NCBI GenBank assembly: GCA_020633845.1
Contig: JACKCW010000003.1
Coordinates: forward strand, 11,661 to 75,660
Reading direction: 5' to 3'
Length of the DNA stretch: 64,000 nt
Source: Bacillales bacterium
GTDB taxonomy: Bacteria; Bacillota_I; Bacilli_A; Izemoplasmatales; UBA1188
A model generated the notes under the pieces. The model searched no databases, had not been told where the DNA came from, and saw only the letters and a list, made by a program, of their open reading frames with translations. Position 1 is the stretch's first letter; every line of letters begins with the position of its first letter. The position numbers were made by a program, and so were the translations under genes. This document shows positions 3,351-29,325 of this stretch, piece by piece.

Positions 3351-3427
3351 ACGCCCATAGCTCAATTGGATAGAGCGTTTGACTACGGATCAAAAGGTTA
3401 CGGGTTCGACTCCTGTTGGGCGTGCCA
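3351..3427 (+). tRNA. tRNA-Arg (anticodon ACG)
   Basis: Hand-folded cloverleaf. Acceptor ACGCCCA/TGGGCGT, anticodon stem TTTGA/TCAAA with loop CTACGGA, T-arm ACGGG-TTCGACT-CCTGT, encoded CCA. Confidence 0.85.
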
Positions 3428-3447: not shown

Positions 3448-3524
<77 letters not shown>

Positions 3525-3537
3525 TTTTTTTGAATAA

Positions 3538-3611
3538 GGAGCCATAGCCAAGTGGTAAGGTACGGGACTGCAACTCCCTCATCCCCAGTTCAAATCTGGG
3601 TGGCTCCTCCA
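3538..3611 (+). tRNA. tRNA-Cys (anticodon GCA)
   Basis: Acceptor GGAGCCA/TGGCTCC, anticodon loop CTGCAAC, T-loop TTCAAAT, encoded CCA. Confidence 0.8.
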
Positions 3612-3720
3612 AAATATAATTCTCCATTTTTGCTATTTCTTTCAAGAGATTTCAAGAATGGTTTTTTTATTTTATTTATTAAGTTTATACACAATAATAT
3701 AAAAAGATGCTAATATAAAA

Positions 3721-3745
3721 TGTCAAAAAGTGTCATAATTTGACA
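3721..3745. promoter_or_regulatory. inverted repeat TGTCAAA-N11-TTTGACA upstream of the GHKL ATPase gene (possible operator)
   Basis: Perfect 7-bp arms at 3721-3727 and 3739-3745, 26 nt upstream of the start codon. Confidence 0.25.
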
Positions 3746-3770
3746 AAAATAAATATAGAACGGAGGAAAT

Positions 3771-5969
3771 ATGGTTGATATAGGAGAATTATTGTCAATA
3801 TATACAGAGTCAGACATTGATGATTTTTTAAAAAAATATACAGGAATCACTCTTAATGAAAAAAACTTATCATATGAAAAAATTAAAAAAAATTACAGAT
3901 TCATAGGAAACAGTGAATCAAATGGATCAAATATTGGACAACTTACGAGTGGAGAAAAAGGTGTAGTAGAAAGAATAACTAATGCAATTGATGCAGTAAT
4001 TGAAAACGAAAAGAGCAAAAACAACATCCTAGTAGCAAAAGATTCTAAAACAATTATTAAAAAAGCTTTTCCAAATTTCTATTCAAATATGCATGATGTA
4101 ATGAGTGAAACTACTGATAAATCCCTAGCTAAGGATGCAGAAAACTTGGTTATTCTAGCAGTAAATGATGGATCAAAATCAAACAAACCAACACTTGATA
4201 TAGTTGATAGTGGAACAGGATTATCATCATACGAATTCGAGACGACGATTTTATCTATAAACCATGGAAATAAACTTCCGAGAGATAAATCATACTTAAT
4301 TGGTGCATTCGGCCAAGGAGGTTCTACGTCATTGGCTTTTGCATATGCGACAATTATCGTATCAAAAAAAGACGATAAAATATCATTTACTATAGTTAAA
4401 AGAGTTGAGCTAATAGACTATAAAAATATGGTATACGTCTATTTGACAATAGAAAGCCATATTCCAAATGCAGATTACTCAAACTTTATATCAGAAAACG
4501 AATATTTAAATAGATTTATTAATGAAACAAAGTCTGGTACTATTGTAAGAATGGTTGAATCTGAAATCTCAAAGAGATTTAGGGATAATGAAGTGACAAA
4601 ACCAGGAATGCTTGGAGACTACTTGAATACTGAACTTTTTAATGTTGGGTTACCAGTAAAAATTATTGAAAACAGAAGCCAATATAAAGACAATGTCCAT
4701 GTCCAAAACAGATCAGTATATGGCTCACTATCAAAATTAAAAACATCAAAAAAATACGTAAAAAAAGATTATTGTGGAATTATAAACTTTGAACACAACA
4801 ATCATTCATATAGTGTAGATTATTATGTTCTTTTGCCAACAGATGAAACCAAATGGGGAAGTGAATCTGAATGTAAAACAGTATTTGAACAATTTAATGT
4901 TTATTACGATCCAATAATTTATACCGTTAACGGGCAGACTATTACTACTGAGAGGTATACAAAGCTTAATAATGCCGGTCTCAATTTTCTTAGATATAGA
5001 TTATTGGTTGTTATTAATCTGGATGTACTTGAATCGGAAAAATACAAATTCTTTACTACAGATAGATCAAGAATTATTGATTCAGATTTAACTCATGGAT
5101 TTTTAGACAAAATAATAAAGGCTTTAGCTACAACAGAAAAACTGCTTAAAATAAATGAAATTGTTGGAGAAAAATCTATAAGCTCTTCAATTGATAAGGA
5201 ACTTATTGATGATGTTTCAAGGCAAATAAAAAACGAATATGATAAATATCTGAAAACTGGCATTTTGCTTTCTAGTAAACCTGGCCATCATTATAATCCT
5301 GATATTGAAGAAATATATGAAAATCAAATAACTTCTTTGGTAATTACCTCTGCAAAACGAGAGTTTTACAAAGATGAAAATATAATTTTTATTGTATCAA
5401 CAGGAGCACAAAAACATGTCAATTCGGAAGCAGTTATATATATGTATATTGATGAAAGGGCTTTTTATGATTATAACACGGCATTTATGAACGGAAGAAT
5501 TCAATATTCAATTAATGCAGGAGCAATTAAAACCGGATCTCATAGTATACAATATAGTTACTTTAAAGACAACATTTCTTACTTGCAGTCTGACAAATTA
5601 TTATTTGAAGTACTAAGTGATAAAGCGCCAGAAAGAGAAAGCAAAAATTCAACAAAGAATCTTGATATTAATATTAAAATTATCAATGAGTCAGGTTTAA
5701 TATGCGACATCGCTAGAGATCAAGTAAATAAAAAAATTGATGTAAAACTATGCTTTGAAAATGAAAAATTGAAGGCTGGAGTTTTTGGATTTTCCTCTTC
5801 ATCAGATGAAATCTTAAGAGTAAAAAACATTATAATTAAACCCACTGTTTTATTTTGCCTTTTTTATGGTGAAAAATATGATAATATTTCAGAGGATGAT
5901 GAAAAAAATAAAATTGTTATTTCTTTTATTAGAGCCTTTATTAGCTGTTCAAACAACAACATAAGTTAA
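3771..5969 (+). CDS. stand-alone GHKL-superfamily ATPase (MORC/Hsp90/HATPase_c_3-like) with a ~540-aa uncharacterised C-terminal region
   Basis: GGAGG RBS. N-box ERITNAIDA (aa 67-75), G1 box DIVDSGTGL (aa 143-151) and G2 box GAFGQGGSTS (aa 178-187) occur in the canonical Bergerat-fold order and spacing. The gene is much more AT-rich than its neighbours. Confidence 0.7.
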   Translation: MVDIGELLSIYTESDIDDFLKKYTGITLNEKNLSYEKIKKNYRFIGNSESNGSNIGQLTSGEKGVVERITNAIDAVIENEKSKNNILVAKDSKTIIKKAFPNFYSNMHDVMSETTDKSLAKDAENLVILAVNDGSKSNKPTLDIVDSGTGLSSYEFETTILSINHGNKLPRDKSYLIGAFGQGGSTSLAFAYATIIVSKKDDKISFTIVKRVELIDYKNMVYVYLTIESHIPNADYSNFISENEYLNRFINETKSGTIVRMVESEISKRFRDNEVTKPGMLGDYLNTELFNVGLPVKIIENRSQYKDNVHVQNRSVYGSLSKLKTSKKYVKKDYCGIINFEHNNHSYSVDYYVLLPTDETKWGSESECKTVFEQFNVYYDPIIYTVNGQTITTERYTKLNNAGLNFLRYRLLVVINLDVLESEKYKFFTTDRSRIIDSDLTHGFLDKIIKALATTEKLLKINEIVGEKSISSSIDKELIDDVSRQIKNEYDKYLKTGILLSSKPGHHYNPDIEEIYENQITSLVITSAKREFYKDENIIFIVSTGAQKHVNSEAVIYMYIDERAFYDYNTAFMNGRIQYSINAGAIKTGSHSIQYSYFKDNISYLQSDKLLFEVLSDKAPERESKNSTKNLDINIKIINESGLICDIARDQVNKKIDVKLCFENEKLKAGVFGFSSSSDEILRVKNIIIKPTVLFCLFYGEKYDNISEDDEKNKIVISFIRAFISCSNNNIS

Positions 5970-5984
5970 TTATATAAAGATATA

Positions 5985-6011
5985 AAAAAGACGAGATTAC
6001 TCGTCTTTTTT
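5985..6011. terminator. bidirectional rho-independent terminator (GHKL gene / def)
   Basis: AAAAAGACGAG-atta-CTCGTCTTTTT, flanked by A and T runs. Overlaps the def stop codon. Confidence 0.7.
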
Positions 6012-6575
6012 ATCTATTTGTGATAATGGCACAATATCTTTTAAATCCTCTTTCACCTTATCGGTAAAAAGAATGCCGTTAATATGATCAAACTCATGCT
6101 GAAAAACAATTGCGAGGTATCCTATAAAAGTTTCGGTTCTTTCTTCAAGAGTTTTATCTTTATAATTATAAAAGAGGGCTCTAAACTTTACCTTTTTATG
6201 TCTTGGAACAGTTCCTGATTGTCCCGGAAGCGATAAACATCCTTCTCCACCATCCAGGTAAGTCATTTGAACTGATTCTCCTAGAATAACCGGATTAATT
6301 ATGCCGTACTCTTTATCTATTCCATTCTCATCCGGCGCGAGTATTGCGAGCATTCTCTTGCTTAAATTTATCTGCGGTGCCGCGAGACCCACTCCTGGTT
6401 TTAAATCATATTTATCACAGAGGTCTTCATCTTGAGAGCGCTCTAGATATACCATCATATCTTTTAAAGCTTTCAAATCTTTTTTTGAGACCGGTGTTTT
6501 TACTTCATCCGCAATCTTTCTTAAGGTCGGATGATCATCTGTAATTATATCTTTAACTAAAATCATCTTCATCAC
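5997..6575 (-). CDS. def: peptide deformylase
   Basis: Motifs GLAAPQ, EGCLSLPG and QHEFDHINGILF (the three canonical PDF motifs). Confidence 0.95.
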   Translation of the reverse strand: MMKMILVKDIITDDHPTLRKIADEVKTPVSKKDLKALKDMMVYLERSQDEDLCDKYDLKPGVGLAAPQINLSKRMLAILAPDENGIDKEYGIINPVILGESVQMTYLDGGEGCLSLPGQSGTVPRHKKVKFRALFYNYKDKTLEERTETFIGYLAIVFQHEFDHINGILFTDKVKEDLKDIVPLSQIDKKDE

Positions 6576-18436: not shown

Positions 18437-19133
18437 TTTAAAGATATTTTAGATAGATAAATAATATTATCGGTTAAATCACTAATTTTCATTGTCTTTC
18501 CGTGACCGGGATATATAACAAGCGGTTTAAGTTCAATGATTTTTTGCCAAGATCTGATGTATGAAGAAAGATTTTCAATGACGAAAGATACCTTATGGAA
18601 TGATAAAGGAATGTTCATCGCCGCATCGCCTACAAACATTTTTTATCTGTAAGAAGAAGAGAAAGAGAGTCTTTTGTATGTCCGGTAGTTTCAATTATGT
18701 CTCCGCCAAGCATATCTTTTAATAATTCTTTATTTTGTTCAGTATAAGGGATAAACCGTTTATCATCGTCAATAGAAGGATATGATATTCTGGATTTATT
18801 CAGTTTTCCTAAGAAAGAGGATAAAAATCCTACATAAAAAGCTTTTTGATTTTGGCCGGTTTTCATTCTTTCTTTAGCTTCTAAAGATGATATAATTAAA
18901 GCTTTTTTATTTACTTCTAATAGTCTTTTTAAAAAACCGACATGATCGCTATGGGAATGGGTAATAAAAACATAATCTATCATTAATAAAGTAAAACCCG
19001 CTTTCTCCATCATCTTTTTAAAATGATCATAATCATTTTCATAGCCTGTATCAATCAGAATCATTTTATCATTGTGAAAGTAAACGTAATTATTAACGAA
19101 AGAAGTCCCAAAATTATAAATTATCTTTTCCAT
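18433..19133 (-). pseudogene. MBL-fold metallo-hydrolase, split by a -1 frameshift in a homopolymer
   Basis: ORFs 18630..19133 (contains HSHSDHVG) and 18433..18639 are the two halves of one MBL protein. They join if the T6 run at 18639-18644 (A6 on the coding strand) is one base longer: ...LTDKK-MFVGDAAM... Confidence 0.6.
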
Positions 19134-20883: not shown

Positions 20884-20896
20884 ACGGAGGGTGAAA

Positions 20897-21757
20897 ATGT
20901 TAGACAATCTTAAAGCCACCGATTTTAATCCGAAAATTGAATTCAAAATGCTTAGTTTTTTAGATCTGAGTTCGGCTACAAAGTTAACGTATAAAGTAAA
21001 TAGAAAAATATTTGAAGGCAAAAAAACACCAAAGGCAATTGGAGAATTTATTTTTTATTGTTCATTTACTGTTTACCAAAAACTGAAAAACGAAAAACTT
21101 TCTTTAGATTTATTTAAAGAGTGCGCCTATGTTTATGGAGCGGTCTTTAATGAGAATAAAATAAATAATTTCTTGTTATGGTATGAAAGCATATCAGCCT
21201 TGCACCTATATTTAAGAATAGCCAAAACTCTTAAATATATAGTGAAGGAAAGGACCTTTTCAGATAAATCAACAGAAATGGCAATTCTTATTACGAATTC
21301 TTTTTTGTACAAAGCACACCACTTAGTCATTATTTATAAATGCCCTAACATCATCTATTTAGTCGGGGCAATCAAAAATGGTATAAGCGATGAATCACTC
21401 TTGAAATGCCTTGATATATTTAGCGAACTTCCGCCTCAACTAAATAATAAATACGAATTAGTTGATAAAAATACTATCATTTTGCTTCTTAAAGCCAATA
21501 AAGAAAAAATATATTCTCTAGGAATAAAAAAGCTATGGCTTTTCGGTTCTTTTGTTAACGAAGAACAGAACGAATATAGTGATGTTGATTTATATGCTTT
21601 AACCACCGAAGACGCCATCGACTCAAAAGAAGAGATATTAGTTGAACTTAAAAAAATTGTTAAAAGGCCAGTCGATTTTCATATGAATGATGATAAAACA
21701 CACTTTAACGAAAATATTTTAAAAGAAATGGAGTTGATCTTAGATGCAGATAAATAA
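20897..21757 (+). CDS. two-domain protein: helical N-terminal (degenerate Fic/Doc-like?) domain plus C-terminal MNT-type nucleotidyltransferase
   Basis: ATG at 20897 lies behind a GGAGGG RBS. The C-terminal Pol-beta NTase signature is LWLFGSFVNEEQNEYSDVDLYAL (GS at 21545-21550, DVD at 21581-21589). Confidence 0.7.
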   Translation: MLDNLKATDFNPKIEFKMLSFLDLSSATKLTYKVNRKIFEGKKTPKAIGEFIFYCSFTVYQKLKNEKLSLDLFKECAYVYGAVFNENKINNFLLWYESISALHLYLRIAKTLKYIVKERTFSDKSTEMAILITNSFLYKAHHLVIIYKCPNIIYLVGAIKNGISDESLLKCLDIFSELPPQLNNKYELVDKNTIILLLKANKEKIYSLGIKKLWLFGSFVNEEQNEYSDVDLYALTTEDAIDSKEEILVELKKIVKRPVDFHMNDDKTHFNENILKEMELILDADK

Positions 21758-22617: not shown

Positions 22618-25600
22618 ATGATTCAAAAAATTACAAACAACACAATAAACCCGGGAATCACGATAGTTGATTCCAAAATTTATGGCACAAACGGAACTCT
22701 ATATTCTTATTCTTCTAGCGGCCACTATTATTCTGGTTTTAACAGCACAAAATTAATGTTTATAAAATTAACTTTCAACATTTTGTCGTCATCAGATATT
22801 CAGAGATCATACTTAAATTTAAAATATTCTGGAGTACACAATTCTACAATGCTTAGAATCTATGACACCAACCAAACTGCCACGACTTCGGCGGCGCTGT
22901 TATCTGTTATTTCCAATTACTCAAACACAGCTTATTTTGATGATGCGGTCATTATTGATGAGAGTACTATGACTGATGGATACGGACGTGCATCTTTTGA
23001 TATAACAAACATTATCAGAAGCAAAGCGACAAGCACCACTTTCAGCGTTGTGCTCATGATAGCCTCAGACTATTCAAGTGCAACTGAATTAAAATTATAT
23101 GATCCAGTTTATGATACTGATGATGTTTGTGTTACAACTTTGTCCGCGATTGACGGATTATCATCAAATTATCAATACCAGGAATCCGATGCCGGATTTG
23201 CCGGAAAAACATACGTAAATCTTGCAACGGGAAAAATGCTTTTAAATTTTGCCGGGCCATCTAGCAAAGATACAAAAATGCCTTTAGCATTTGGTTTTAC
23301 CTATAATTCAAATAGATACCAACTATCATATGATTTGGGCAACGGGGCCAAGTCCTTTTTCAATTATAAAATATATCAAAGCGGATCGTCTTTAATCGTT
23401 CAAGATCCATCTGGTTATGACAATGTTTTTACACCTATTGATGATGAAGAGGCCGAAAATCTTGATATTGATACCTCAAATCAATCTTGTGACTACTATT
23501 ATTCATACGAGACGGGATCGCACATTGCGTATAATTCATCTACTTCTTTGTTGAGGTTATACGATAAAAACGAAAACTTGATGAGTTTTTATTATAATAC
23601 GATCGTTACAAGACTTATGAGCATTTCAAATAAGCTTGGCAAAACCACAGATTATAATTGGGACATACTAAACGGCAATCCACCAGAATCAATTGAAAAC
23701 TCTGTTGGAGAGATAATGTCTTTGGTTTATGACTCTTCAGACAGAGTTGTTACAGCAACATGTAACTCTATTATTTTAACTTTCGCTTATGACGCGTCTG
23801 GTCGCTTATCAAGTGTGATAGAAAACAACGGGTCCACTAATTTGTATACTGCAACTTACGGATATGATACAAACGGATATATGAACGACATTCACGACTC
23901 TTATTCAGATACCGGAATCAGTTTTACATATACCGGAGGAAAAGTGACCAGAATAGACTATTATAAAAACTCAACAACTGAATCTGCCGGATATAAAGTA
24001 ATTGCTTACAACGATAATTTTACTAGTGTAGCCAATGAAAAAGGAGAGATTAATTATTACTACTTCAATGAAAACGGCAAATGTATTATGGTTATGGATG
24101 ACAAGGGAAAAACTATTTCATTTAACTATGATGAAATAAAAAATGGTTTATCTAGTAATCTTTCCGGTCAGTCTCACGTTCAACATAATTCTAGAAATTT
24201 GATTGAAAATAATAGTTTTGAAAGCAATGATGATTTATTTGGAGATGACTCTTGTTGGACTATTTCAGGAGCGTCTTCTACAACTGCGGAAACAGTTGAT
24301 GATGGAGTATATGGGCAAAAATCTTTAAAAGTATCTCACGCTGCCGGAGAAACGATAACAATTTCTCAAAATTTGCATAATGTCTATGAGGGAACATACA
24401 TTTTAAAAGGATTTTTAAAACGTTATACACAAGCAAGTGCGATTACTTCAAGCAATATAAAAATCAAATTAATCGGAAGCTACGACATAACTGAAAGCGT
24501 TCCTGTGACCACAACGCAAAGCGATGGCACAACAGTCACAACATATGTTAATCAAACAAATCATTGTGACAATTTATCAGTAGAAAATGCATCTTTTTCC
24601 GGAGATTCTAATTGGGTTGCTTTTAGTCTTCCTGCTTTAAGTTTTCCTACAGCATCATTTAATAATACCTTAAATATTACAATCCAATTAATCGGAAACA
24701 CATATGATGTTTATTTTGACGAACTACAACTTAACAGCAAAGATATGAGCGCTAGATATAATTATGTTGAAAATGGATATATGGAATATGGAAGCGTGCT
24801 GCCTACTGGATTCGCAATGAATAGCGTTGGCCTTTTGGATTCTATTTATACTCTTACTTCATCAGATGAACATGCATCTATTCTGGGCAAAAAAGTAATG
24901 CGGCTTTATGAAACATGTGCCTATACTCAAACATCTGGAACTATCAATTCAAAAAAATTCTATCGAGAGATTCCGATAAAAGGAATTGAAGGAGAAGAAC
25001 TAGTATTTAGCATCTTTGCCAAGGCTTTAGCTACAGAAAATAATATTTTCAGAGCCTATATAATTTTTAATTATGTTGGCCAAAGTGCCGTATCAACCTA
25101 TAGGTTCGATTTTATCAAAGACTTTTCTAACTGGCAAATGCTTACAAAAAGCATAACAGCCGAGCACTCATACGATGGAATTATTCTAGGAGTGGAGTAT
25201 GCCGGAAAGTCAAACGCATATATTGATGCCTTCCAGCTTTATAAAGATAACTATGGAAAGTACTATTCATATGATAAAAAAGGCAACCTTATTAACACAG
25301 TGGATGGCGCATCTTCCTCGAGCTTTTCTTACAACGATCTAAATGAAATTGAAAGCGCCTCTTTGAGCGACGGCAGTTACTATAGATATGAATATGATGA
25401 CGATAGACAAATTACCGGCGTATATGATTCAAACGGCAATCATCTAGTGATGGAGTACGACGATAATGGAAATAGAACCAGCGTTCAATTATTTGATGTC
25501 AATGGCAAAGCACTAAATGTGTCATCAGCCTATAATTCCTACAGCAAAGCACTTAGTTATACTAATGAATTAAATGAAACTACAACATACAGCTTTGATG

Positions 25601-28600
25601 CAAAAGGATTACTTCAAACTACTACAGATCCAACTGGGCAAGTCGAAAGAAATTCTTATGATAGTTATGATAGGCTCATTTGTCTCGATTCATTTCACGG
25701 AGGAAACGCACCAACAAATGCAGAAAACCAATACAGCTATAACAGCCTTAATCAATTGGCCTCAATTTCAAGTAACAACGGCACGACGTATGGATTTGTT
25801 TATGATGACTTTGGAAGAATAACAGAGATAAACATAGATGGAGCAAGATACCAATCAAAAGAATACAATTTAAGTCACGGTACTCCGTCTGTGAATACCG
25901 GATTATTAACTATGAAAAGATATGGGACATCAGGAGACTACTATGCTTTTACTTATGACGATAATGATAGAATAGCTACTGTTTTACTAAACGGAAACCA
26001 AATTGCAGCCTATGAATATGATGAAAACGGACAAATATCCAAATCAACCGACTCTGTAAATGATAATACTAGAAATTTCTCCTATGATTTAAAGGGAAAT
26101 TTGAAAAAATCAACCGACTCTGACGGCAACTCTATTTCTTATTTTTACGACAATCTTGGTGCTGTTCAAAAAACCATCTATGAAATAAACGAAAAAAATA
26201 GAACATTTGATTACCAGTATACATATGAAGAAAATGAATACTCAAAAGAAGGATATTTTGAAAGACTGAGTACTGTTTATGGAGACGAGATAATAAAAGG
26301 AAATATGCTCGGAAAAGGAACATACGGAGCTACACCCGATGAAGATATCCCTAGTTCTATGGTTTATACAGACGACGTTATTAAAATGTCTGTTTATAAG
26401 TTTTCAACAGCAGATAACAAAATAGAATATGAACTATCTAAATTTAATAATGATAGGGATGGGATATATTATAACTCCACTCAGTTTAACTACAATGTCT
26501 GGAAATCAAACTTTGCAAACGAAAAGACTTTCTATGCCTGGATAAAACCGATGGGCAGTTTTTCTGAGGAATGCATTTTCCAGTTTGCCGATATTACTAA
26601 TCAAACGACATATTGCAGTTTGGTAGTCAATTCAACTGGGCATTTAGGACTAAAACCATATAATTCAAGTAGTATGGCCTTAACCTCGAGCGCCTTAACA
26701 ATAGGAGTTTATAACCTTGTTGGAGTCCAGTTTATCAAATCTTCTTCTTCAATTACCGCGAGATTAATTGTAAACGGAAATGTAACAGAATTTTCAACAA
26801 CCATTGACCCTAGTAATTTTGGATACTTAAAAGTGGCCGATCAAAGGGAATATAATTACTCAAGTTTACTCCCTATGTATATTTATATAGCATTTATGTC
26901 TGCCGGCTCTTATCCATATACAGCCGATGACTTTCAAGCAATTTATAAAGCCGGCGCGCCTTATCTTTCTAGCATAATAAACAGAGAAAGTAAAACGAGT
27001 GGAGTACTGTATTATAATAAAACACCATATGAAAGCTTTGATATTATAACGCTTAATGGGAGCTTCGTGTCCAGCAAGGGCTTAGAGCCGAAAACTATTG
27101 TTGAAACCGATAATTCATATAAGGTTGACAAGGCAAAACTATTCAAATACGACCTTACTCTTAAAAAACATATATATGGAAGTTATAGTAGTGTTGTGAA
27201 TTTAACTCCTGGTAACAATTCTAAATTGGTATATGATTTAGGGCTAGGTGCATCAGGCACTATATCAATTAGATATCGCTTTGACGCATCAGCAAGTCAA
27301 GATACTTATCCTAAAATGTTGTTCTCTTTCATTAACGGCAGTACAACACATTTATATGCCGAATATCAAAGTAGCACTGGCTTTAAAATATACGATAATG
27401 CAGGTCATTCTACTGTTATTCCTTTTGATACAGGAGTTTGGCATACCTTATCATTATCATATAACTCAAGCGGAACTCTACTTTATCAAGACTTAACAAG
27501 TATATCCAACTCACTAAGCATAAATTTAACCGGTTGTGAAGCGTATATAGGCTCCGGAAGTTCAGACAACACTCAAATGGATGGAGACATGGAAATGCTT
27601 GTATTTGGAAATTCTAAAGCTACGGCAACACAACTTCAAGCATTCTACAGCGGAAGAAAATCATACTCTGTGTTAAAAACACACGACTTACTAGATCGTA
27701 TTACCAAAAAAGAGATAATAAAAAATTCTGCAACTGCTTCTCATACTACCACAACATATTATACTCATGGGGATACTACAACCGCAATTCATCCACTTGT
27801 TCATAGTGAGGAGACTACAACTAAAGAGCAAAATGTAAGCACAACAGAAGTAACAATTTACTCATATGATTCTTTAAATAATGTTACGTCAAAACTAGTA
27901 ACAGACGCAAACGGAGTCGGAAAAGAAAGAGTCGATTACTCATACGATGAGATTGGCAGATTATCTGAAGAGGATACATACACTTATGTGAGCGGCACCG
28001 GTCTCGTCTTAACTTATAAATTTAAGTACACATATGATCAAAACGGAAATATTACATATAGAAAAAAATACAGTTCCACAGACAGTCTTCTTGCAACAAA
28101 ATCCTATGTATATGATCAAACAATAAAAGATAGATTAGCAAGCGTCACCGATGGAAATACCACCACCACTATTACATATGGTACCGGCTTTGCATTTAAC
28201 CCGACATATATAGGATCTACCCCACTAGCATGGAGCGGAAGAAGATTAACCGGATATGGCTCAAACCTATTTGTTTACAACGAAGATGGAATAAGAATTA
28301 GAAAAACATCAGTTGGATTTGCAACTCATACTTATGATTTAGAAGGAAAAAGGGTAGTCGGCGAAACAATAGATAGTCCATCAATTCACTTTGATTATAA
28401 CTATGATGAAGAAGGGACACTTATTGGACTTACTTATAATGGAATTGAATACTTCTATTTAAGAGATATAACTGGAAATATTGTCAAAATAGTTGATGAA
28501 TCTGGAAATACAGTAGTAAAATATAGTTATGATGCATGGGGCACAGTAACAAAAACAAATATTGCAAACACCACTGCATCAGGTATCCTCTATACATACA

Positions 28601-29325
28601 ATCCATATTTATACAAAGGCTATTATTACGACAGAGAAACTAATTTGTATTACTGCAACAGCAGATACTACAGTCCTTCTTTATGCAGATGGATATCGGC
28701 TGACGCAATAGACAATCTTGATCAATCAACGATTGATGGAATAAATCTATACGCGTATTGTGGTAATAACCCAGTAATGGGATATGATCCAGAAGGAAAA
28801 TGGAATTGGAAAAAATTCGCCATTGCACTTGCTGTATCTATTGTTATAGTGGCGGTTACTGTGGCTATAGTTGTTGCAACCACCGCAACTGGTGGACTTG
28901 CAATGCTTATTATTGGGGCTGCAGTTACCACTGGTGTAGTTTTGTCTTACGCAGCAGGCGCAGAAAAAACAGTGGTCATAGATTTAAGTTGTTATTTATG
29001 GGATGTTGGCGGAGGAAATTCTCTGGTCATTGATTTTAAAAATGATTCATGCGAACTATACTCTCATGGTGGGTTTGTGATGGGAGATAGTCCCATGGCT
29101 ATTTCTTTCTCTGTCGGACTTGTTGATAATTATAAAGGAAAACGCGGATACGAAGGACCATTTATGAAGATTGGAGGAGGATATAAAATTGGAATTGAAC
29201 ACGCTTTTGATCCGACTAAACCATATGATGAAACCGTTAGAGCTACAACAGTAACTTTTTCAAATTCTTTTGGAGTATACGCAGGATTTGATTATTATAC
29301 TAGTTTATTTTATTTTAATTTCTAG
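22618..29325 (+). CDS. Rhs/YD-repeat polymorphic toxin (2235 aa) with a variable C-terminal toxin domain
   Basis: Many YD repeats (YDASGRL, YGYDTNGY, YEYDDDRQ, YDDNGN, YSYDEIGRL, YTYDQNGN). Rhs core end YNPYLYKGYYYDRETNLYYCNSRYYSPSLCRWISADA...NLYAYCGNNPVMGYDPEGK (DPEG at 28786-28797). No signal peptide, LXG, WXG or PAAR-like N-terminus is visible. Confidence 0.9.
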   Translation: MIQKITNNTINPGITIVDSKIYGTNGTLYSYSSSGHYYSGFNSTKLMFIKLTFNILSSSDIQRSYLNLKYSGVHNSTMLRIYDTNQTATTSAALLSVISNYSNTAYFDDAVIIDESTMTDGYGRASFDITNIIRSKATSTTFSVVLMIASDYSSATELKLYDPVYDTDDVCVTTLSAIDGLSSNYQYQESDAGFAGKTYVNLATGKMLLNFAGPSSKDTKMPLAFGFTYNSNRYQLSYDLGNGAKSFFNYKIYQSGSSLIVQDPSGYDNVFTPIDDEEAENLDIDTSNQSCDYYYSYETGSHIAYNSSTSLLRLYDKNENLMSFYYNTIVTRLMSISNKLGKTTDYNWDILNGNPPESIENSVGEIMSLVYDSSDRVVTATCNSIILTFAYDASGRLSSVIENNGSTNLYTATYGYDTNGYMNDIHDSYSDTGISFTYTGGKVTRIDYYKNSTTESAGYKVIAYNDNFTSVANEKGEINYYYFNENGKCIMVMDDKGKTISFNYDEIKNGLSSNLSGQSHVQHNSRNLIENNSFESNDDLFGDDSCWTISGASSTTAETVDDGVYGQKSLKVSHAAGETITISQNLHNVYEGTYILKGFLKRYTQASAITSSNIKIKLIGSYDITESVPVTTTQSDGTTVTTYVNQTNHCDNLSVENASFSGDSNWVAFSLPALSFPTASFNNTLNITIQLIGNTYDVYFDELQLNSKDMSARYNYVENGYMEYGSVLPTGFAMNSVGLLDSIYTLTSSDEHASILGKKVMRLYETCAYTQTSGTINSKKFYREIPIKGIEGEELVFSIFAKALATENNIFRAYIIFNYVGQSAVSTYRFDFIKDFSNWQMLTKSITAEHSYDGIILGVEYAGKSNAYIDAFQLYKDNYGKYYSYDKKGNLINTVDGASSSSFSYNDLNEIESASLSDGSYYRYEYDDDRQITGVYDSNGNHLVMEYDDNGNRTSVQLFDVNGKALNVSSAYNSYSKALSYTNELNETTTYSFDAKGLLQTTTDPTGQVERNSYDSYDRLICLDSFHGGNAPTNAENQYSYNSLNQLASISSNNGTTYGFVYDDFGRITEINIDGARYQSKEYNLSHGTPSVNTGLLTMKRYGTSGDYYAFTYDDNDRIATVLLNGNQIAAYEYDENGQISKSTDSVNDNTRNFSYDLKGNLKKSTDSDGNSISYFYDNLGAVQKTIYEINEKNRTFDYQYTYEENEYSKEGYFERLSTVYGDEIIKGNMLGKGTYGATPDEDIPSSMVYTDDVIKMSVYKFSTADNKIEYELSKFNNDRDGIYYNSTQFNYNVWKSNFANEKTFYAWIKPMGSFSEECIFQFADITNQTTYCSLVVNSTGHLGLKPYNSSSMALTSSALTIGVYNLVGVQFIKSSSSITARLIVNGNVTEFSTTIDPSNFGYLKVADQREYNYSSLLPMYIYIAFMSAGSYPYTADDFQAIYKAGAPYLSSIINRESKTSGVLYYNKTPYESFDIITLNGSFVSSKGLEPKTIVETDNSYKVDKAKLFKYDLTLKKHIYGSYSSVVNLTPGNNSKLVYDLGLGASGTISIRYRFDASASQDTYPKMLFSFINGSTTHLYAEYQSSTGFKIYDNAGHSTVIPFDTGVWHTLSLSYNSSGTLLYQDLTSISNSLSINLTGCEAYIGSGSSDNTQMDGDMEMLVFGNSKATATQLQAFYSGRKSYSVLKTHDLLDRITKKEIIKNSATASHTTTTYYTHGDTTTAIHPLVHSEETTTKEQNVSTTEVTIYSYDSLNNVTSKLVTDANGVGKERVDYSYDEIGRLSEEDTYTYVSGTGLVLTYKFKYTYDQNGNITYRKKYSSTDSLLATKSYVYDQTIKDRLASVTDGNTTTTITYGTGFAFNPTYIGSTPLAWSGRRLTGYGSNLFVYNEDGIRIRKTSVGFATHTYDLEGKRVVGETIDSPSIHFDYNYDEEGTLIGLTYNGIEYFYLRDITGNIVKIVDESGNTVVKYSYDAWGTVTKTNIANTTASGILYTYNPYLYKGYYYDRETNLYYCNSRYYSPSLCRWISADAIDNLDQSTIDGINLYAYCGNNPVMGYDPEGKWNWKKFAIALAVSIVIVAVTVAIVVATTATGGLAMLIIGAAVTTGVVLSYAAGAEKTVVIDLSCYLWDVGGGNSLVIDFKNDSCELYSHGGFVMGDSPMAISFSVGLVDNYKGKRGYEGPFMKIGGGYKIGIEHAFDPTKPYDETVRATTVTFSNSFGVYAGFDYYTSLFYFNF
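28499..28803 (+). repeat. rhs core 3' homology block (recombination substrate), master copy
   Basis: Nucleotide-level similarity to 32348-32626 over the full block and to 30984-31186 over its 3' two-thirds. Similarity ends at the DPxG codons. Confidence 0.8.

Follow-up and report, generated by a model that had tools for sequence, protein, structure and literature searches.

A predicted paraMORC-type ATPase gene beside a tRNA cluster of a Bacillales bacterium, probably a stranded subunit of an AIPR-linked defence module

The paraMORCs, prokaryotic ATPases composed of GHKL and S5 domains, were proposed to be components of restriction-modification (R-M) systems acting with diverse nucleases, and AIPR was listed among the neighbours of their genes (Iyer, Abhiman & Aravind 2008, PMC2292703). 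That survey describes their genes as joined in operons with those of HNH endonucleases, C5 cytosine methylases and AIPR, and as patchy and laterally mobile in distribution, at hotspots; a comparative-genomic outline of a module in which a paraMORC is accompanied by AIPR, HNH or Dcm dates from 2008. VcSduA (GHKL-Shedu, a paraMORC3) is a validated anti-phage protein that requires its ATPase motif, and its GHKL domain was proposed to control the nuclease (PMC12137116). AIPR (PF10592, "abortive infection phage resistance") has been used as a marker of abortive infection and defence in defence-island surveys (PMC10121019), and an HHpred comparison was reported to show its similarity to DndB (PMC8546572). 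A search of the literature revealed no experiments on a pair of AIPR and GHKL proteins. The present analysis concerns a predicted ATPase of this type encoded in a stretch of 64,000 nucleotides from a Bacillales bacterium (order Izemoplasmatales; GenBank assembly GCA_020633845.1, contig JACKCW010000003.1, positions 11,661 to 75,660), hereafter the window. Its gene is an intact open reading frame (ORF) of 732 amino acids (aa) at 3771-5969 (+), stop codon included, directly following a cluster of three tRNA genes, and differs from the described paraMORC genes in having no operon partner. The original prediction regarded it as a stand-alone gene and a candidate for defence. The results described below indicate that its relatives are consistently linked to partner genes and that the window copy is probably a stranded ATPase subunit.

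A total of 305 full-length homologues of about 730 aa were found, with 46-72% identity to the window ATPase. The core of this family consists of about 20 clusters (50% identity) with full-length matches, inside a radiation of 680 clusters (profile search, E<=1e-10) sharing GHKL and S5 domains. The hosts include Bacilli, Acholeplasmataceae, Cloacimonadota, Delongbacteria and a Mollicutes-like host using genetic code 4, and the contexts are unrelated and variable. The Bergerat motifs that had been read from the window sequence are all in place, and are invariant in an alignment of 59 members: the N-box E67xxxN71AxD74A at nt 3969-3995 (E67, N71 and D74 invariant), the G1 box D146xG148xG150 at nt 4206-4220, and the G2 box G178xxG181xG183G184 at nt 4302-4322. 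G256-T257 (motif IV-like) is also invariant across the family, as are columns of the S5 region including R302, Q312, R314, N387, G388, Q389, R410, D418 and K424; the invariant residues K277, R410 and K424 are candidates for the basic residue of S5 that contacts the gamma-phosphate of ATP. The window protein itself showed no match in Pfam, HATPase_c included, even at E<=1, nor in PHROGs and NCBIfam. PF13589 (HATPase_c_3) was matched by 26 of the 59 sampled homologues, with a best E of 7.5e-8, and the GHKL assignment is based on these homologue matches together with the fold search.

A search of the family profile against PDB sequences gave no match, and only the fold search was informative. An AlphaFold2 model of the window ATPase was built with the family alignment (predicted local distance difference test score, pLDDT, 85.8; predicted template modelling score, pTM, 0.76). 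The best PDB matches by Foldseek were MORC3 (6o1e, E=4.9e-11, 411 columns), MORC2 and MORC4, with E values up to 1e-9 over about 410 columns (TMt 0.55 for 7k7t), followed by ParE/GyrB, SMCHD1 and TRAP1. Overall, Bergerat-fold N-domains (MORC, GyrB/ParE, Hsp90/TRAP1, GRP94) matched the model at E between 5e-11 and 1e-4. These matches to MORC ATPase modules identify aa ~61-435 as a GHKL plus S5/transducer unit, an engine of the MORC/MutL/GyrB type. By its motifs and predicted fold, the window protein is a MORC/paraMORC-type GHKL plus S5 ATPase, in agreement with the GHKL/MORC-like assignment of the original prediction.

The predicted domains follow one another on the + strand. A family-specific N-terminal helical cap (aa 1-60; 3771-3950; pLDDT 80-96) precedes the GHKL (Bergerat) ATP-binding domain (aa 61-300; 3951-4670), located by invariant columns, PF13589 and Foldseek, and the S5/transducer-like domain (aa 301-435; 4671-5075), which is covered by the ~410 Foldseek columns, carries invariant residues and completes the ATPase module. 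The conserved C-terminal extension of the family, about 300 aa long, is modelled as a pair of long helices, forming a hairpin or coiled coil, and then a disordered linker (aa 436-510; 5076-5300; pLDDT <50 at aa 496-509), an immunoglobulin (Ig)-like beta-sandwich (aa 511-662; 5301-5756) and a C-terminal helical bundle (aa 663-732; 5757-5966), which is possibly a constitutive dimerisation or partner-binding element. When aa 436-732 were modelled separately (pLDDT 77.5), Foldseek returned Ig-like sandwiches only (RAGE, 3cjj, 5.7e-5; ICAM, PD-1, titin). The ~540 aa described earlier as having no recognisable motif can thus be divided: about 130 aa belong to the S5/transducer part of the ATPase module, and the rest comprises helices and the Ig-like sandwich. 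No nuclease, TIR or other effector fold was detected in the protein by Pfam or by Foldseek of the C-terminal model.

Two weak matches of the window protein were discarded. A phmmer match of aa 327-431 to a DddB immunity protein / MEI (9k3e_C, 9pw2_B; E~7e-4) was not reproduced by the family profile, and the fold of this segment is that of the S5 domain. In PADLOC-DB v2, where no model covers either the ATPase or its AIPR partner, the sole match of the window protein was to PDC-S33 (E=3.4e-4, aa 7-114); it was rejected as chance, three homologues being without any PADLOC match. Two AIPR partners were likewise without a match, and no named system was obtained. Carriage by phages or plasmids was likewise rejected: no relatives were found in IMG/VR or among GenBank phages, and PLSDB plasmids gave only distant GHKL matches of 26-29% identity. 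A distant GHKL relative of 755 aa, annotated as hypothetical, is encoded on the megaplasmid of Pontibacillus sp. ALD_SL1 (L113; NZ_CP062975.1, 128862-131129), with 28% identity over aa 37-316. Its gene is solitary between genes for a chemotaxis receptor and a sigma factor, with no AIPR, HNH or methylase nearby, so that the wider superfamily does include solitary members.

Among the described paraMORC classes, paraMORC1 is the closest by description, being characterised in the 2008 survey by a C-terminal extension and a linkage to HNH and Dcm. The conserved ExxxH of paraMORC2 is absent from the family; the window protein reads E341-H-N-N-H345, of which the second His is not conserved, and no E/H pair was found among the invariant or near-invariant S5 columns of the 59-member alignment. 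The C-terminal restriction-endonuclease-fold (DUF4263) nuclease of paraMORC3/GHKL-Shedu is absent from the window ATPase by Pfam and Foldseek. Unlike paraMORC4, the window ATPase has neither a TIR fold nor a TIR match in Pfam, and none is adjacent in the window. VcSduA is similar in being a GHKL ATPase of prokaryotic defence, but combines the ATPase with a DUF4263 PD-(D/E)xK nuclease in a single polypeptide, whereas the family described here would rely on a separate AIPR or HNH gene. Eukaryotic MORC2, MORC3 and MORC4 (PDB 6o1e, 5ix1, 9cdh, 7k7t) are the best fold matches, over ~410 residues of GHKL plus S5, and by analogy the match implies that the window ATPase would undergo ATP-driven dimerisation of its heads and clamp DNA. 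The sequence identity to these proteins is, however, only 11-13%; their CW/chromatin-reader domains are absent here, the C-terminal Ig-like and helical domains differ, and the bacterial family belongs to a defence-island module with a nuclease-type partner.

The genomic context of the ATPase gene was examined at 18 distinct loci besides the window (loci are given L numbers). None of the 18 carries a solitary core-family ATPase, and the claim of a stand-alone system does not hold for the family. At 16 of them (L001-L011, L013-16, L018, L101/102, L105/106, L107-112) the arrangement is a helix-turn-helix (HTH) gene of the HTH_3 type (~84 aa, minus strand), then divergently AIPR (PF10592, ~400 aa; Pfam E=1e-31) and the ATPase gene, with 12-30 bp between AIPR and ATPase. 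The HTH protein scores as an R-M "Control_protein" (E=3e-10), and a VDGGHT motif was seen by eye in the AIPR proteins. AIPR, known from R-M operons, thus stands immediately upstream of the ATPase gene in most contexts of this family, but is absent from the window. At one locus (L103/L104; L103:2617-7193) the order is C5 methylase (Dcm), HNH_2 and ATPase, the AIPR and HNH gaps overall being 1-30 bp. The ATPase gene of L103 (5001-7193), adjoining rpmH-rnpA-yidC, has four TGA codons in frame when read with table 11 but none with table 4; therefore, the module is present also in a host reading TGA as Trp (Mollicutes-like, genetic code 4). At the remaining locus (L099/L100; L099:4673-9967) a 71-aa ORF comes before the ATPase gene, which is followed by MTaX1 and Dcm without AIPR. 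In L013-L016 this MTaX1-Dcm pair is found flanking ATPase copies that are linked to AIPR. This swapping of partners between clades suggests that AIPR, HNH_2 and MTaX1 are functionally interchangeable subunits for nuclease activity or discrimination.

The neighbourhoods of the relatives are variable defence islands, with type I M/S genes, DarTG (DarT/Macro), ParE, PLD-helicase, ThsA-Macro, ABC-3C and integrases, and no fixed housekeeping context was found. In L006, L007, L009, L101 and L107 the HTH side of the module is separated by 80-400 bp from a tRNA or tmRNA gene in the same orientation; in L015 such a gene adjoins the MTaX1 end instead. The gene order of these tRNA-flanked modules is that of the window: tRNA, the position of HTH and AIPR, and then the ATPase. 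L101:1-5061 together with L102 carries tRNA-Lys, HTH, AIPR and ATPase, then genes for a tyrosine integrase and DUF6076 and, farther out, a Dam/DpnII R-M system; this looks like a compact island integrated at tRNA-Lys with a complete module, and is a good model for how the window islet might have been acquired. In L003 (6777-7985) and L004, which are identical in two assemblies, AIPR is interrupted by an in-frame TAA (PVYL*KFYQ against KYKSKFY in L001) and the ATPase remains intact despite this nonsense codon, an independent precedent for loss of AIPR first.

The intergenic region between HTH and AIPR is strongly conserved among the relatives (L001:6608-6773, with equivalents in L002, L003, L005-L011, L015, L018 and L105). 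It contains a near-palindrome, AACGCTATATATGACGTT, which overlaps the AIPR promoter at its -35 box (TTGAGA) and is probably the operator of the HTH protein. The 5' untranslated region (UTR) of AIPR, about 75 nt long, has two hairpins, for which RNAalifold gave 15 pairs, six of them with compensatory double changes, such as TGCAT/ATGCA to TGCTA/TAGTA in L015 and CTGCT/AGCAG to GCGCT/AGCGC in L003. No Rfam family matched this leader at the gathering thresholds or at E<=10; it is possibly a cis-regulatory element, so far undescribed, in the leader of a defence operon.

In the window, the genes of tRNA-Arg(ACG) at 3351-3427, tRNA-Pro(UGG) at 3448-3524 and tRNA-Cys(GCA) at 3538-3611, all on the + strand, were identified by ARAGORN, and the AT-rich islet with the ATPase gene begins directly 3' of tRNA-Cys. 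The ATPase ORF ends 27 bp before the stop codon of the convergent peptide deformylase gene (def), and both genes share a bidirectional intrinsic terminator at 5982-6013, active in prediction on both strands, with a 14-bp stem, a loop of 4 nt and T-runs on both sides (terminator scan). The surroundings are housekeeping in nature, because the flanking genes encode an H+-pyrophosphatase (hppA), Def, a MatE transporter, PriA and Fmt. As noted earlier, the ORF is more AT-rich than hppA and def: the GC content is 0.25-0.31 over 3600-6000 against 0.43-0.49 in hppA and 0.35-0.38 in def/MatE. The gene has a GC content of 0.286, compared with a mean of 0.364 for the 39 other window ORFs (z=-2.1), and a GC content at third codon positions (GC3) of 0.194 against 0.344 (z=-3.0), the lowest among the 40 ORFs. 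The ATPase gene is compositionally foreign to the window. No direct repeats resembling att sites were found around the islet beyond short AT-rich chance matches, and the comparison with possible empty sites through def relatives in metagenomes was uninformative on insertion (best relative 49% identical; none of 19 loci with a tRNA near def). The earlier observation that no partner gene is adjacent extends to the entire window, in which tblastn gave no homologue of AIPR, HTH, HNH_2, MTaX1 or Dcm; this search covered 64 kb of the 83-kb contig.

An independent assembly of 2,409 bp (L017, Logan SRR12358676) is 100% identical to window 3588-5996, and ends inside the 3' end of tRNA-Cys on one side and in the terminator loop just past the ATPase stop on the other. 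The coincidence of these ends with the islet edges is compatible with a branch of the assembly graph such as presence/absence variation, but is given little weight, because the left break might also be due to the tRNA being repeated.

The region upstream of the ATPase gene (3612-3770, 159 bp, AT-rich) contains an RBS (ribosome-binding site) of its own, GGAGG at 3762-3766 (+), 4 nt 5' of the ATG, in accordance with the original prediction, and an extended -10-like element, TGTCATAAT, at 3731-3739 (+), which may serve as a promoter; a two-hexamer promoter scan gave no site on the + strand in 3612-3770. The inverted repeat TGTCAAA-N11-TTTGACA at 3721-3745, to which attention had been drawn, is present, but does not exceed chance: 57% of shuffles of the 159-nt region and 29% of equal-sized window tiles carry one or more perfect inverted repeats of 7 nt with a loop of 3-20 nt. 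Having no counterpart in the relatives either, it was rejected as an operator. The upstream region shows no similarity to the HTH-AIPR intergenic region or the AIPR-ATPase junction of the relatives.

In a neighbour-joining tree the window ATPase is nested in the AIPR-linked clade beside P0008, of which the locus itself carries HTH and AIPR; its solitary state is probably a derived exception that arose by loss of HTH and AIPR. All invariant family residues are kept, and deviations occur at 9 of 201 highly conserved columns, against a family mean of 9.0. No rate excess over P0008 was detected with true outgroups (p=0.24-0.93); an excess seen with close outgroups was a topology artefact, and accelerated or relaxed evolution of the window copy was rejected. 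Of the changes private to the window copy, a share of 0.49 falls in the Ig-like domain and the C-terminal helical domain, inside the range of AIPR-linked copies (0.10-0.52).

In engines of the GHKL plus S5 kind, such as GyrB, MutL, Hsp90 and MORC, two subunits join by their ATP-bound heads, and the cycle is used for clamping, looping or passing on DNA or client proteins. The canonical module, consisting of a divergent C-protein-like HTH regulator, AIPR and a paraMORC-type ATPase of ~730 aa, would form a mobile, R-M-like defence system; in some clades an HNH nuclease or MTaX1 takes the place of AIPR and is frequently accompanied by a C5 DNA methylase. By analogy with MORC, MutL and GyrB, the ATPase dimer would be the clamp or motor, its GHKL heads dimerising on ATP and clamping or looping DNA, its C-terminal helices holding the dimer together and its Ig-like domain contacting the partner or DNA. 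Because the ATPase has no nuclease fold, the step of DNA targeting or killing is attributed to the partner: AIPR, HNH_2 or MTaX1 would supply DNA discrimination, cleavage or both, and the C5 methylase, where present, would mark self DNA. Expression would be limited by the C-protein-like HTH through the palindrome over the -35 box of the AIPR promoter. The window gene would have been brought by horizontal transfer to the tRNA-Cys side of the tRNA cluster, in the orientation seen in complete modules flanked by tRNA or tmRNA, and the tRNA-proximal HTH and AIPR would be missing most simply through deletion.

The explanation rated most likely, and held with somewhat more than even confidence, is that the window ORF is a stranded ATPase subunit, recently acquired or truncated, that would be unable to restrict DNA alone, because it is a complete ATPase engine without effector, regulator or nearby partner. 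Several points weigh against it. The gene is intact, every invariant residue is kept and constraint is not relaxed; a useless remnant should decay, and either the loss was recent or the protein still does something. With its own RBS, a plausible extended -10 and a terminator, the gene may well be expressed. The 159-bp upstream region holds no trace of AIPR or HTH, so that a deletion is deduced rather than seen; the search extended over 64 kb of the genome, so that a partner could be encoded elsewhere; and the roles of ATPase and AIPR are assigned throughout the family by analogy.

A partner encoded elsewhere would make the locus one half of a split system, in which the ATPase works in trans with an unlinked AIPR, HNH or MTaX1 protein, and possibly a methylase, outside the window. 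The intact, motif-complete and unaccelerated gene fits this alternative, as does the flexible identity of the partner across clades, which implies that the ATPase tolerates different partners and gene orders; unlinked partners were raised as a possibility for stand-alone paraMORC3 genes in the 2008 survey (PMC2292703), and only part of the contig and of the genome was searched. Nevertheless, each of the 18 other contexts has the partner directly adjacent, the 64 kb contain no homologue of a partner, and the regulator and structured leader of the module are missing from the window too; a split system is considered unlikely, although it is the leading alternative. Ranked behind it, and likewise improbable, is an autonomous single-gene defence or accessory factor, for example one that clamps or compacts invading DNA in a MORC-like, ATP-dependent and nuclease-free manner. 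Eukaryotic MORCs act without a nuclease, the window gene is intact with expression signals of its own, the islet is identical in a second assembly, and the Pontibacillus megaplasmid relative is also solitary. On the other side, the 18 core-family contexts include no other solitary copy, no effector domain is present and no PADLOC model matches. Since the window ATPase is nested in the AIPR-linked clade, any autonomous function must have evolved newly, yet no domain shows a burst of changes beyond the range of linked copies. The association of the family with variable defence islands bears out one part of the defence candidacy claimed earlier; single-gene defence is not its likeliest form, because the ATPase has no effector fold of its own. 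More doubtful again is the specific proposal, drawn by analogy to eukaryotic MORCs, that the solitary ATPase has been kept for an activity without a nuclease partner, such as an ATP-dependent one that clamps, compacts or silences DNA that is incoming or unmodified. A housekeeping GHKL protein (a chaperone, or a topoisomerase-like or MutL-like factor) in a fixed chromosomal context could be imagined from the position among H+-PPase, tRNAs, def, priA and fmt. The outlying GC3, the unrelated and variable contexts of homologues, the absence of the tRNA-def arrangement among def relatives, and a likeness to MutL, GyrB and Hsp90 that is limited to the generic fold render this proposal effectively refuted and highly improbable.

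The result for the window is mainly corrective, pointing to a stranded subunit rather than a new stand-alone system. The module of HTH, AIPR and ATPase is compact, absent from PADLOC, and found widely among metagenomic lineages of low-GC Gram-positive and Mollicutes-like type. Its nuclease-type partners are apparently interchangeable, its regulator is C-protein-like and its structured 5' UTR shows covariation; the module of the family is a reasonable candidate for experiments, with the orphan as a possible natural "ATPase-only" control. Were the orphan active by itself, it would reveal how a MORC-type clamp can work without a nuclease in bacteria, and would represent a bacterial single-gene, nuclease-free defence or silencing factor of the MORC type that evolved from a two-gene restriction module.

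Three other ORFs of low GC content were noticed in the window: a metallo-beta-lactamase-fold protein at 18630-19133 (-; GC 0.282, GC3 0.22), a Pol-beta/NTP_transf_2 nucleotidyltransferase at 20891-21757 (+; GC 0.294), and a 153-aa ORF without Pfam match at 29335-29796 (+; GC 0.303), located just after an ORF of 2,235 aa (22618-29325). These may be further accessory or horizontally acquired genes.

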